Assembly: GCA_011391255.1 (NCBI GenBank)
Contig: JAABQV010000004.1
Location: 97,084 to 161,083, forward strand
Source: Dechloromonas sp.
Lineage (GTDB): Bacteria > Pseudomonadota > Gammaproteobacteria > Burkholderiales > Rhodocyclaceae
Length of the DNA stretch: 64,000 nt
Direction: 5' to 3'
Shown here: one piece after another, positions 22,875 through 25,960 of the stretch
Layout of the letters: each line of letters starts with the position of its first letter
How positions within the stretch are numbered: position 1 is the first letter of the stretch
Made by a program: the position numbers and the translations under genes
The notes under the pieces: model-generated
The model's database searches: none
Told to the model about the DNA's origin: nothing
Seen by the model: the letters and a program-made list of their open reading frames with translations, nothing else

Positions 22875-22962
22875 GGGTCTGTGGCAGAGCGGTTGAATGC
22901 ACCGGTCTTGAAAACCGGCGTGGGGAAACCCATCGTGAGTTCGAATCTCACCGGACCCGCCA
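22875..22962 (+). tRNA. tRNA-Ser(UGA)
   Basis: 88-nt type II cloverleaf; acceptor GGGTCTG/CGGACCC, anticodon loop CTTGAAA, long variable arm, GCCA end. Confidence 0.95.
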
Positions 22963-22975
22963 AAAAACTTATGAT

Positions 22976-22988
22976 TATCAATGACTTA
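22976..22988 (+). promoter_or_regulatory. IHF-binding consensus next to the tRNA-Ser 3' end
   Basis: TATCAATGACTTA is an exact match to WATCAANNNNTTR. Confidence 0.6.
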
Positions 22989-23046
22989 GATGTCATTCCA
23001 GATGATCTAACAAGTTGCTGGATTGCTTTGCTACCTCTTGGTTTGA

Positions 23047-23083
23047 AGGACAAGTAGGACAAGGGAAGGACAAATTAGGGCAA
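23047..23083. repeat. Four AGG(A/G)CAA direct repeats, putative integrase arm-type sites
   Basis: AGGACAA at 23047, 23056 and 23067; AGGGCAA at 23077; spacing 9-11 bp. Confidence 0.5.
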
Positions 23084-23213
23084 TCCCAAGTTTGTGAAGA
23101 TCCAACTCTGCATCCAGAGTGGAGCCTATCAGGGGCGGCGTTTAAACACAATTTTTGGGTTTCCTTGGGTTTGGTTTTCCATGTTTCCTACAGAGACTTC
23201 TTAAGTGCCTTCC

Positions 23214-23470
23214 GTAACGCGTAACACCGTAACGGCAACATGGGGGCAACTGGCGGCAAACACTATTGCGTTTGGTCTTTGCCTGTGTGGGGGCAAGGGC
23301 AACCCATATATATAAATCTTTCTCTTTTTAAAGTTACATTGTTACTGCGTTACAAAATGCTCTAAAGCCTGATAGGACAAGGCTTTAGATAGTAACAAAG
23401 GCAGTAACGTAGATTCAGATCTACGTTACAAATGCACCGACCACGGCTACTGCTTGCGATCCTTCGGTAC
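23214..23470. repeat. GTAAC/GTTAC iteron-and-hairpin module, copy 1
   Basis: GTAAC at 23214/23221/23229, GTTAC at 23333/23341/23349, 10-bp IR 23361-23389, GTAAC 23392, 11-bp IR 23404-23429. Confidence 0.8.
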
Positions 23471-23526
23471 GCTTGCAGGAAAAAATCTGAAAAAGAAGAA
23501 CAATGCCTAAGTCCCTCTCCTGCTTT

Positions 23527-23856
23527 TCATTCGAGTGAGAGTTCAGCAACGGCTTCCGCTAATCCACCTTCAACAATCTCGCACGAGACGCCAAGCATCA
23601 GATTCAGCGGCAAGTTGAAGTTCTCAATTATCAGGCCGTCAGGATCGACAATACGACCATCTTTTCTTGCCAGCGCACCGCCGAAACGTTCGGCGAGCTT
23701 ATCGACTTGCGGTCTTGTGTCTTTGAGGTAATCGAAAGTGTCTGACCGTCGCTGCTGAGCATGCGGGTCATGAATGGACGGGCAAAGCGCATACTGCACT
23801 TGCAGATGCCGCCGCAGCGATGAGCGTTTGGCACTGGTGCCAGGAACAGTCGGCAC
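23527..23856 (-). CDS. Possible small hypothetical protein or gene fragment between the two modules
   Basis: 109-aa ORF with GTG start; no recognisable motif. Confidence 0.25.
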   Translation of the reverse strand: MPTVPGTSAKRSSLRRHLQVQYALCPSIHDPHAQQRRSDTFDYLKDTRPQVDKLAERFGGALARKDGRIVDPDGLIIENFNLPLNLMLGVSCEIVEGGLAEAVAELSLE

Positions 23857-23983
23857 AACACCAATAATCAGGAAAACCCTTGGGGAAATTCCAACTCATG
23901 AGATTTTCCCCATCCGGCCTTCCCAGGAATCCCCAACCTTCTGAATATTCCCACCAGCTTGAACATCCATCGAGATATGGGCC

Positions 23984-24243
23984 GTAACGCTGTAACGGCG
24001 TAACACTGGGAATAGGATGATAGGAAGGAGCAGGGGGTTACCGGTGAGGGACGGCAGCGGCGGTAAGCAAATAACCCCTATATTTCTTTCTTTATCTCTA
24101 TAGAAGTTACGTTGTTACAACGTTACAGATCTCTTGAAAGCCTTATATAGCAAGGCTTTCCGGCGTAACGAAGGGCGTAACGTAGATTGAAATCTACGTT
24201 ACAAAATCACTGACCACGGCGACTGCTTTCGCTTCCTTCGGTA
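23984..24243. repeat. GTAAC/GTTAC iteron-and-hairpin module, copy 2
   Basis: GTAAC at 23984/23992/24000, GTTAC at 24106/24114/24122, 9-bp IR 24136-24160, GTAAC 24165, IR 24177-24202. Confidence 0.8.
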
Positions 24244-24280
24244 TTCTGTGTACTTCACTGATGCTTAAGTTTGTAATTAC

Positions 24281-24643
24281 ATGACTCCGCGCTTTGTTGA
24301 TGCCCCACTACGGATAGTTTCGCCGAGCTTCGACTCGCCATTGACGGATGTGGTTATTGAGCTTGACCACCTGCGGCGACTTCGACTGGCCGGCAACACG
24401 CCCAAAGCGGTATTCCATCAACTCAAAGATATTTTTCACATGCTCGAAAGCCTGGGTTCTGCCCGCATTGAGGGGAATCACACCACTCTCGCTGATTACA
24501 TCGAGAGCAAGATAGATTCGCCGGCCAACCCAAGCGACCAGATTCAGGAAGTTGGGAATATCGAGCGGGCAATGAATTATGTCGAAGAGGCTGTCGAGGC
24601 AAATGGTCACATAATCAATGGAAAAAACCAACAAACCAGTTGA
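24281..24643 (+). pseudogene. 5' fragment of a Fic-family protein gene
   Basis: [24 protein letters not shown] is a Fic N-terminal pattern; the ORF stops at 120 aa, before any HPFxDGNGR motif. Confidence 0.7.
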
Positions 24644-25814
24644 CCGCGAAACACTGTACAACGAGGTCTGGACCGACCCGGTAATTCTTGTCGCACCTCG
24701 CTACGGCCTCTCCGACGTTGGCCTCGCCAAAATCTGCCGTGCCTTGTCGATTCCTTTGCCAAGCCGTGGCTATTGGGCGAAGGTCAAAGCAGGCCGAATC
24801 ATGGGGAGGGCACCGCTTCCCAAGTTGAAGCAACAAGGAGAAATCAACACAGGATTGGTGAAACTGCCCCCAGAAAAGGCAGCAGTTCGCGAAGCAGCGA
24901 GAAAGACTGCCGCGAAAATTCGCAAAGAAACGCCAGTATTGCCACCACCAGAGGAGACTTCCTCGTCGTCGCCCCATCCCTTGGTTCGAGCGACTTCAAA
25001 GCGATTGCGGCAGCGAGATGGCTGGCCCGAGGACACCCAACTCCGCACAGCGCCAAAAGAGGTGCTGAATCTCTCCGTAACACGTGACTCAATTGAACGT
25101 GCCCTCGGCATTGTTGATGTTTTGCTGAAGGCGCTAATCAAGCAGGGGTTTGATGTCGAGGTAAATGCTGAACGTGGTGTGACTCTTCTTAAATGGGTGG
25201 AAACTGGAACCACCATTGAATTCGTAATGACCGAGTACGTCCGTCGTTCGCGGCATCAAATAACACCGGCTGAGGAACGGGCTCAGAAACGTTATTGGGC
25301 GCGTAATCGTTGGGATAGTTCGGTAAGTTTTCCGCATACACCGATGTATGACTACACGCCGAGCGGGGTGCTCACCATTCAAGTTGGACGATGGCCTTCG
25401 AAAACTTGGAAAGATACGCCGAAGACTCAGCTTGAGAAGCGCATGGGAGAGGTAATAGTTGGTATTGTCGTATTTGCGCAGGATACATACGCGAAAGAAC
25501 TTGAGGAGGCCCGTCGAAAAGAGGCCCATCGCCTTGCCGTTGAGCGTTTTGAATTTCTGACCAAAAGTCGCGCTAGGGAAGTTGAGCGCTTCAAGCACCT
25601 TGAGGGCTCTGCCAAGGATTGGAAGAGAGCAGTGCGACTACGTGCCTACGCTGATGTGGTTGAGGCCGACGCTAGGTCGAAAGGCGACTTGTCTCCTGCG
25701 CAACTGGAATTGCTGGCTTGGGCGCGAGCCAAGGCAGATTGGCTGGACCCGCTTATCCAGGTTTCTGACCCGATTCTTGATGCGCCAGAGCCAAAGAAAC
25801 CGAGCTATTGGTGA
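24618..25814 (+). CDS. Conserved hypothetical protein of genomic islands, HTH-like N-terminus
   Basis: [12 protein letters not shown]...[12 protein letters not shown]...PSRGYWAK N-terminus; C-terminal coiled coil ending [12 protein letters not shown]. Confidence 0.75.
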
Positions 25815-25960
25815 GCAATTTTATTTTGGACAGCTTATGCTTTATTTTCCGGTCAAGTTATAGCTAACGGCACAAATACTGAGTATTGATGCGGGTTTTT
25901 TGCTTCTGGATATGACTTTATACGAATTTGCGTGTGCGGGATTGCCATGCGATGTGATTT

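Follow-up and report, generated by a model that had tools for sequence, protein, structure and literature searches.

A 64-kb stretch of Dechloromonas sp. DNA (contig JAABQV010000004.1, positions 97,084 to 161,083, called the window below) contains, behind a tRNA-Ser gene, two diverged copies of a module assembled from GTAAC and GTTAC pentamers. On balance, the evidence tips toward reading these modules as replication origins of the type served by superfamily 3 (SF3) primase-helicases, which now have no initiator in cis. Chief among the observations behind this reading are that the architecture of the modules resembles that of the origin recognized by Rep of the Staphylococcus aureus pathogenicity islands (SaPI), and that modules of the same plan abut primase/helicase genes in 28 of 40 loci from other lineages. 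The copies in the window are probably silent, trans-dependent orphan origins.

Each window module carries nine pentamers, and the distance from the start of one to the start of the other is 770–773 bp. Three GTAAC iterons on the left and three inverted GTTAC iterons in the middle enclose a spacer of about 100 nt, and the right half is made of a hairpin, a single GTAAC, a palindrome and a tail (Table 1). An earlier annotation made from the letters of the window alone, the sequence-only reading, had described two modules about 770 bp apart with a shared iteron-hairpin-palindrome-tail layout, and all the features it named are present. The top strand of the spacer is strongly purine- and G-run-rich, with many runs of GGG to GGGGG, and then passes into a polypyrimidine tract, as it does in every family member (e.g. 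L037, 480–590, minus strand). The spacer of module 1, which ends in cccATATATATAAATCTTTCTCTTTTT, also given as ATATATATAAATCTTTCTCTTTTT, is presumed to be the unwinding region. The palindrome of module 2, GTAACGTAGATT-GA-AATCTACGTTAC, shares its arms with that of module 1. The tail of module 1 spans gaccacggc to ccttcggta, and the module extends to about 23497, where homology to the relatives stops; the three CTTGC/CTTCG repeats and the A-run of this tail are conserved in the relatives. Full relatives possess 13–14 pentamers per module. In these, the tail is followed by three CTTCG repeats placed 9–10 nt apart, an A-run and a third cluster of three to four GTAAC and one GTTAC, which is missing from both window copies.

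The window has three occurrences of the triplet pattern where 0.01 are expected, and two of the palindrome where 0 are expected. The two copies are 79% identical overall; their pentamers agree at 45 of 45 positions as compared with 125 of 215 other positions (p = 5e-10), and identity in the central spacer is 44%. Among five full-length family members, all 45 pentamer columns are invariant, as opposed to 59 of the 234 other columns (p = 3e-23). The proposal of the sequence-only reading that motifs have been conserved while spacers diverged is borne out by these counts, which support the view that selection acts on the modules as arrays of protein-binding sites. Since all nine pentamers bear the mark of selection, in the two diverged copies as well as in each relative, the comparison argues that a protein still binds them. 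A family profile searched with nhmmer found no additional copy in the window, and elsewhere it recovered only loci preselected by the pattern, hence providing no independent evidence. A BLAST search with the 1.08-kb region returned no match among phage and plasmid records, and scans of viral contigs for the exact palindrome gave none.

The right half folds far better than shuffled sequences, with z = −6.5 for module 1 and −4.7 for module 2, and the effect is weaker in the relatives. The arms of the palindrome are kept in the relatives, and its loop varies in sequence and in length (4–5 nt). Two inner stem pairs change together, AT/AT in the window and CC/GG in the rest, which amounts to one double change only, and hairpin 1 is rebuilt from a different sequence. 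Because most relatives have a C.A mismatch in the palindrome, support for its structural reading is modest, and strong covariation support was not obtained. The possibility that the left half forms one long hairpin paired through GTAAC and GTTAC was rejected, as the 3-nt gaps between the pentamers are non-complementary in every copy.

The association with replication genes comes from a wider search. Genomes, one per species, were scanned for three GTTAC at 8-bp spacing followed after 25–55 nt by GTAAC-N5-10-GTAAC, and viral contigs were scanned with a matching pattern, both patterns containing iterons only. The scans returned 57 genomic and 92 viral loci, far above chance, which are of three kinds: tandem and Alistipes repeats, a phage family with a partial array, and 44 loci with the full plan. 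The latter span many phyla as well as viral contigs, and four of them are from Rhodocyclales. They share features that were not part of the query, namely at least two GTAAC clustered 60–200 nt upstream, an AT-rich or alternating purine-pyrimidine tract ahead of the GTTAC triplet, and an inverted GTTAC past the GTAAC pair. The interval from the GTTAC triplet to the next GTAAC, for which the pattern allowed 25–55 nt, measures 38–40 nt in 35 of 52 distinct modules and begins with AAAA(T)GC in many of them.

In 28 of the 40 full-plan loci outside Rhodocyclales, a primase/helicase gene ends or starts at the module. The encoded proteins are VapE-like (8 loci), DUF5906 proteins with Prim-Pol, D5_N, PriCT_2 or DUF3854 (5 loci), DUF927 proteins with HTH_56 (2 loci), Toprim-P-loop proteins (2 loci) or members of a family without a Pfam hit (11 loci). 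This last family shows about 30% identity to annotated DNA primases of Bordetella, Pararheinheimera and Bdellovibrio phages and is distantly related to D5-like helicases according to profile comparison with hhalign; a sequence search of the PDB with the L001-type flanking protein gave no match, and the nature of the family was settled by hhalign and the phage annotations. Several near-duplicates are included in the 28 loci, which still come from no fewer than six unrelated initiator families. A VapE-linked viral module (L097/L105) resembles module 1 beyond the iterons, with GTTACaaaatgccctcaaagccttgata in L105 corresponding to GTTACaaaatgctctaaagcctgata in module 1. The Pararheinheimera phage KLER1-1 shows the same plan 3′ of its primase gene, built from GTAAG/CTTAC iterons and a TATATA tract. 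This unannotated origin-like region (L164, 4190–4683), where GCTTACA/TGTAAGC and GCTAA repeats flank long TATATA runs, is found at the terminus of the linear record. The literature searched contained no description of a GTAAC/GTTAC origin class.

Two groups of repeats were excluded as unrelated, the tandem (GTTACNNN)n arrays of Solirubrobacterales, Ignavibacteria and Thermoanaerobaculia and the repeats of Alistipes. The former (L007, L010, L015, L016, L022, L033, L034, L050–L052, L056 and L057) consist of long head-to-head (GTTACNNN)n and then (GTAACNN)n arrays, which could form large hairpins and are present in many copies per genome. Where flanks were read, the arrays take up the space between genes, in many cases convergent ones, in Solirubrobacterales, Thermoanaerobaculia, Ignavibacteria and Didemnitutus, and a tRNA gene adjoins in L056 and L057. 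The units of Alistipes and other Rikenellaceae (L004, L008, L013, L014, L035 and L044) are multi-copy and contain four to five GTAAC at 11-bp spacing followed by three GTTAC; they are often doubled, and several lie at contig ends, which suggests a repeated mobile-element end.

The isoleucyl-tRNA synthetase (IleRS) of the window clusters at 90% identity or above with proteins assigned to Azonexus and Dechloromonas, which places the window in an organism of this kind. The close relatives of the window modules are all from Rhodocyclales. Two clear homologues, L005 from a Dechloromonas genome and L037 from an uncultured betaproteobacterium, were found in the genome scan; L060 and L061/L063 were added by a family-specific scan of metagenomes, and L156, L157, L158 and L159 by look-ups via the neighboring DUF2779 protein. 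The metagenome matches L058, L059 and L062 were chance matches. The resulting eight loci contain ten full copies, one partial copy and one copy truncated by a contig end, with two full modules and a partial one separated by different cargo in L157. None of the eight has a primase/helicase gene beside the module, and tblastn with 8–14 primase/helicase proteins gave no match in the 64-kb window or in about 100 kb of the related loci. With no replication gene next to the module in any of the eight relatives, the lack of an initiator is typical of this family and not a local accident. The sequence-only reading had assumed that the modules were retained after the loss of a primase and an integrase, which is not supported by this distribution or by the presence of an integrase near one relative only, 2.4 kb upstream. 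Its expectation that homologues lie near primase/helicase genes fails for the strict homologues and holds for the architectural relatives in other lineages.

The distance from the stop codon of a DUF2779 gene to the start of the module is 15–25 bp in six of the eight relatives. DUF2779 is a predicted 3′-5′ exonuclease with a PD-(D/E)XK domain (PMC3985635). The unit composed of a 74-amino-acid membrane protein, DUF2779 and the module recurs in four or more distinct chromosomal settings, in one of them beside an integrase and tRNA-Ser. In most relatives, variable cargo of the defence, toxin-antitoxin or metal-efflux type is located 3′ of the module, including mobile mystery proteins A/B (helix-turn-helix plus Fic), AbiE, ParE/Phd, HEPN, TIR, cation efflux and UvrD/DEAD helicases. 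Another element is found inside the 3′ end of the DUF2779 gene in L157 (12650–13230) and L159 (7295–9290), where about 45 bp of the gene are duplicated; its ends bear repeated motifs such as GAGAGAAGATATACCATCTC and TACCGATATATCGGAACA, and the L159 copy contains AbiEi/AbiEii. The element has the appearance of a site-specific cassette or transposon directed at the end of this gene.

Several of these observations weigh against an origin function. The lack of a primase/helicase gene at all eight Rhodocyclales loci means that a position just after rep, the defining feature of such origins, is not seen within the family itself, which is the main weakness of this reading, and the placement 3′ of a DUF2779 nuclease gene hints at a different partner. 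The AT-rich part of the spacer is confined to its last ~25 nt, the remainder being G-rich. The loci from other phyla were found through a GTTAC query, and the iteron sequence that they share is partly an effect of the search. In addition, a phage family of 57 contigs (L067–L155, e.g. L068, 4633–4745) has a partial array, GTTACx3-N25-GTAACx2-N17-GTTAC preceded by a conserved TTTCTATAGATGTTTTTAC box, directly before its small-terminase gene, and thus GTTAC/GTAAC arrays are not always origins; this one may be a pac site or a promoter rather than an origin.

Within the window, the modules are part of a variable islet that starts 2–3 bp past the 3′ end of tRNA-Ser, with module 1 beginning 250 bp from the tRNA gene (Table 1). 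The GC content of the islet is below that of its surroundings. A single low-depth contig from the sediment metagenome run X1 fuses 22964 to 25827 and skips the islet, with 20 nt on its shorter side, which suggests that strains without the islet exist. At this joint, neither a direct repeat nor microhomology was found. The same metagenomes contain additional module variants. In the comparison of the window with the Rhodocyclales relatives, conservation is confined to the modules and the remainder is a patchwork; the islet is a decayed mosaic of truncated cargo genes behind tRNA-Ser.

Table 1. Coordinates of the modules and of neighboring features in the window
Feature	Position	Strand	Remarks
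tRNA-Ser (anticodon UGA)	22875..22962	+	ARAGORN and Rfam
Variable islet, 2,862 bp	22965..25826		both modules and truncated cargo genes; delimited by a low-depth metagenome contig joining 22964 to 25827
Module 1, left triplet, GTAAC x3 at 7–8 bp	23214, 23221, 23229 (to 23233)	+	invariant in all relatives
Module 1, spacer, 99 nt	23234..23332	+	G-run rich, then ATATATATA and polypyrimidine tract
Module 1, middle triplet, GTTAC x3 at exactly 8 bp	23333, 23341, 23349 (to 23353)	+	opposite in orientation to the left triplet
Module 1, 38-nt interval with hairpin	23354..23391	+	starts AAAATGC like many relatives
Module 1, perfect 10-bp hairpin	23361–23370 with 23380–23389		TCTAAAGCCT/AGGCTTTAGA
Module 1, single GTAAC, then palindrome	23392..23429	+	
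Module 1, palindrome	23404–23429		GTAACGTAGAT-TCAG-ATCTACGTTAC; two further iterons form the hairpin arms
Module 1, tail	23430..23497	+	ACAAA..CAC.G.CCACGGC, CTTGC/CTTCG/CTTGC at 9–10 nt, then CAGGAAAAAA
ORF109, nucleoside 2-deoxyribosyltransferase (PF05014) fragment	23527..23856	-	DNA homology 23451–23730
Module 2, left triplet, GTAAC x3 at 8 bp	23984, 23992, 24000 (to 24004)	+	
Module 2, spacer, 101 nt	24005..24105	+	purine/G-rich, then TATATTTCTTTCTTTATCTCTATAG tract
Module 2, middle triplet, GTTAC x3 at 8 bp	24106, 24114, 24122 (to 24126)	+	
Module 2, 38-nt interval with 9-bp hairpin	24127..24164; hairpin 24136–24144 with 24152–24160	+	GAAAGCCTT/AAGGCTTTC
Module 2, single GTAAC, then palindrome	24165..24202	+	palindrome 24177–24202
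Module 2, tail	24203..24243	+	truncated by recombination junction with Fic fragment
Truncated Fic gene, 120 of 385 aa	24281..24643	+	Fic_N only; 97.6% DNA identity to L160–L162 over 24240–24613
ORF398, last islet gene	24618..25814	+	start overlaps the end of the truncated Fic frame

The C-terminal ~65 residues of open reading frame (ORF) 109 correspond to the C-terminal third of a nucleoside 2-deoxyribosyltransferase, and the gene is 5′-truncated; the idea that it might be the remnant of a replication gene was therefore rejected, and it is considered to be cargo. An intact gene for this 195-residue enzyme adjoins the same module tail in L165 (93.6% identity over 23451–23730), and thus the module and the transferase gene travel as a unit. 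At the end of module 2, intact Fic loci are homologous from 24240 onward, and homology to other modules continues until 24242. The intact 385-residue Fic genes on the small metagenome contigs L160–L162 have a different upstream region with no module in it, from which it follows that module 2 was cut at 24243. Searches of Pfam, NCBIfam and PHROG with ORF398 gave no match, and its cluster at 90% has three members.

A mechanism can be proposed by analogy with characterized SF3 systems. The C-terminal winged helix of an SF3 primase-helicase (SaPI Rep, VapE/D5-like) would bind the GTAAC pentamers, the opposed triplets would load the helicase at both flanks of the ~100-bp spacer, and the spacer would then melt. 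The right-hand hairpins, the extra iterons and the CTTCG repeats may aid priming or loading. Since neither the islet nor the rest of the 64-kb window encodes an initiator, the modules would be silent until an incoming phage or satellite brings a GTAAC-specific initiator. Such an initiator is the natural candidate for the protein that binds the pentamers, and the modules would then be trans-activated origins or decoys: once it is supplied, they would fire and amplify the adjacent cargo, or soak up the initiator. We infer the replication or decoy activity, the melting and the protein binding of the modules from this analogy and from sequence comparison. Activation in trans or a decoy role, as suggested by the sequence-only reading, remains the most sensible interpretation.

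It may further be speculated that the initiator-less modules in Rhodocyclales islands are kept as phage-responsive sensors or decoys and are not relics, a rather unlikely proposition at present. In this scenario, the chromosomal modules would capture the GTAAC-specific VapE/D5-type initiator of an invader and starve its origin, in effect a natural chromosomal counterpart of phage-encoded resistance (Per). Alternatively, local over-replication would raise the dose of the defence, toxin or nuclease cargo, including DUF2779.

Among other explanations of the modules, an involvement in recombination is the most probable, though still unlikely. The pentamers would then be arm-type or accessory sites for an integrase, excisionase or resolvase that assembles the cargo cassettes, and the window copies would be scars. 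In line with this, modules lie at the boundaries of unrelated cargo segments, as with the multiple modules of L157; the end of module 2 coincides with the Fic-fragment junction, the end of the DUF2779 gene is duplicated beside the module in L157 and L159, one relative has an integrase upstream and the islet itself is an insertion/deletion. The modules are, however, not at the tRNA junction, from which they are 250 bp away, and lie kilobases from the sole integrase seen; the islet ends without direct repeats, and the duplicated end of the DUF2779 gene is part of another inserted element that has end motifs of its own. The same architecture occurs 3′ of primase/helicase genes, not of recombinase genes, at the 28 other loci, and 5-bp sites at 8-bp spacing with a melt-prone center are untypical of arm sites. 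Nor do the modules have the setting of attachment (att) sites of a tyrosine integrase: tblastn with the L157 integrase gave no match in the window, and no recognizable integrase is found among the ORFs between 22 and 40 kb.

It is improbable that the modules are origins of transfer (oriT), at which a helper relaxase would nick beside the palindrome, with the pentamers serving as sites for accessory proteins and the islands being mobilizable. The hairpin is indeed conserved together with its 3′ flank ACAAA..CAC.G.CCACGGC, the islands have no transfer or replication genes of their own, and short repeats at ~8 bp suit ribbon-helix-helix accessory proteins. But no relaxase family is present among the called genes of L156–L159 or in the flanks of the wider class, and no coupling-protein gene in the loci examined; the wider class goes with primase/helicase genes and is frequent among viral contigs, and opposed iteron sets around an unwinding tract are a hallmark of replication origins and not of oriT.

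A regulatory role at the DNA or RNA level appears very improbable. The right half would in this case be a promoter/operator, a structured leader or a small RNA for the cargo, with pentamers as repressor operators, which would explain why cargo genes read out of the module co-directionally in L060, L061 and L158 and why the hairpins are kept, with one pairing-preserving double change. Against this, cargo is often on the opposite strand (ORF109 in the window, L157 and L159), the palindrome has the C.A mismatch in most relatives, hairpin 1 is built from a different sequence, and 13–14 sites over 350 bp go far beyond the needs of an operator. Rfam covariance models gave no match in the module region at the gathering score or up to E = 5, a scan for promoters and terminators showed no excess of such sites in the module, and a search of RNA runs did not find the region, which is weak evidence. 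Least probable of all is a packaging signal, a mimic of pac or cos bound by the small terminase of a helper phage so that the island is packaged, as the phage family that inspires it, with its array directly 5′ of the small-terminase gene, lacks the left GTAAC triplet and the spacer and so has a different arrangement, the full modules are located 3′ of primase/helicase genes, and no terminase gene is near any family member. Every one of these alternatives explains some of the features, but without the gene associations that an origin function has in other lineages.

Provided that the modules are origins, a cross-phylum class of GTAAC-iteron origins emerges whose geometry is fixed, and this would provide a simple sequence rule for finding the origins of VapE/D5/DUF927-type primase-helicases, which are mostly unmapped. 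The Rhodocyclales family would show that such origins survive under selection without their initiator, beside defence and toxin cargo, which raises the question of whether chromosomal origin copies are helper-dependent amplifiers or anti-phage decoys. For the window alone the outcome is modest: the modules mark a decayed variable islet behind tRNA-Ser.

The closest known parallel is the origin of SaPI and related phage-inducible chromosomal islands (PICI), such as SaPI1, SaPIbov1 and SaPI5. The SaPI origin has 6–12 penta- or hexanucleotide iterons directly 3′ of rep, divided equally between the two sides of an AT-rich center and in opposite orientations, and Rep is a self-loading SF3 helicase whose winged-helix C-terminal domain reads the iterons and which melts the origin without ATP (PMC9371898). 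The left half of the window modules broadly fits this description, with short iterons in opposed sets around a tract that is presumed to melt. The nine iterons of each window module are within the SaPI range, and the opposed triplets flank a spacer of ~100 nt, AT/CT-rich in the last ~25 nt only and otherwise G-rich; at the corresponding place, relatives have tracts that are AT-rich or alternate between purine and pyrimidine. The position directly after the initiator gene is shared only by the wider GTAAC class, at the 28 of 40 loci described above; it is not found in the window or in the eight related loci. The window modules also differ in their iteron sequence, in the absence of rep beside them or their close relatives, in the mostly G-rich spacer with its short AT/CT tract, and in their host, a Gram-negative member of Rhodocyclales. 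Moreover, the GTAAC family adds a right half with hairpins, a two-iteron palindrome, CTTCG repeats and a third iteron cluster.

The origin of the satellite P4 is of the same general kind, with short direct and inverted iterons bound by the C-terminal domain of a primase-helicase, and crr is a second cis element made of repeated iteron-bearing units. The type I iteron of P4 is the octamer TGTTCACC, which is bound by the alpha protein. This octamer is not found on either strand of 22963–25826, there is no alpha-like gene here, and the window modules are diverged copies in a mosaic islet, not the ori/crr pair of one replicon. Of the sequence-only reading, the architecture of an origin and the proposal of a trans-activated or decoy role stand, whereas the P4 label and the assumed loss of a primase and an integrase are not supported.

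A looser parallel, for the hairpin-rich right half, is the origin of the plasmid pRN1, a stem-loop 3′ of the prim-pol/SF3 helicase gene orf904, for which the integrity of the hairpin matters and for which similar phage arrangements have been noted by the authors (PMC4234260). pRN1 is, however, an archaeal plasmid, and its origin is a single stem-loop of ~100 nt without arrays of pentamer iterons.

With regard to function, the nearest precedent is Per, e.g. that of Sfi21 in Streptococcus thermophilus, in which a copy of an origin without its initiator is activated by, or titrates, the proteins of the infecting phage (PMC6356513). The effect there requires a raised copy number of the origin region, whereas the window copies are single and chromosomal. 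Most of the work on Per has been done with plasmid clones. Given a suitable invading phage or satellite, the orphan modules could work in the same way as Per.

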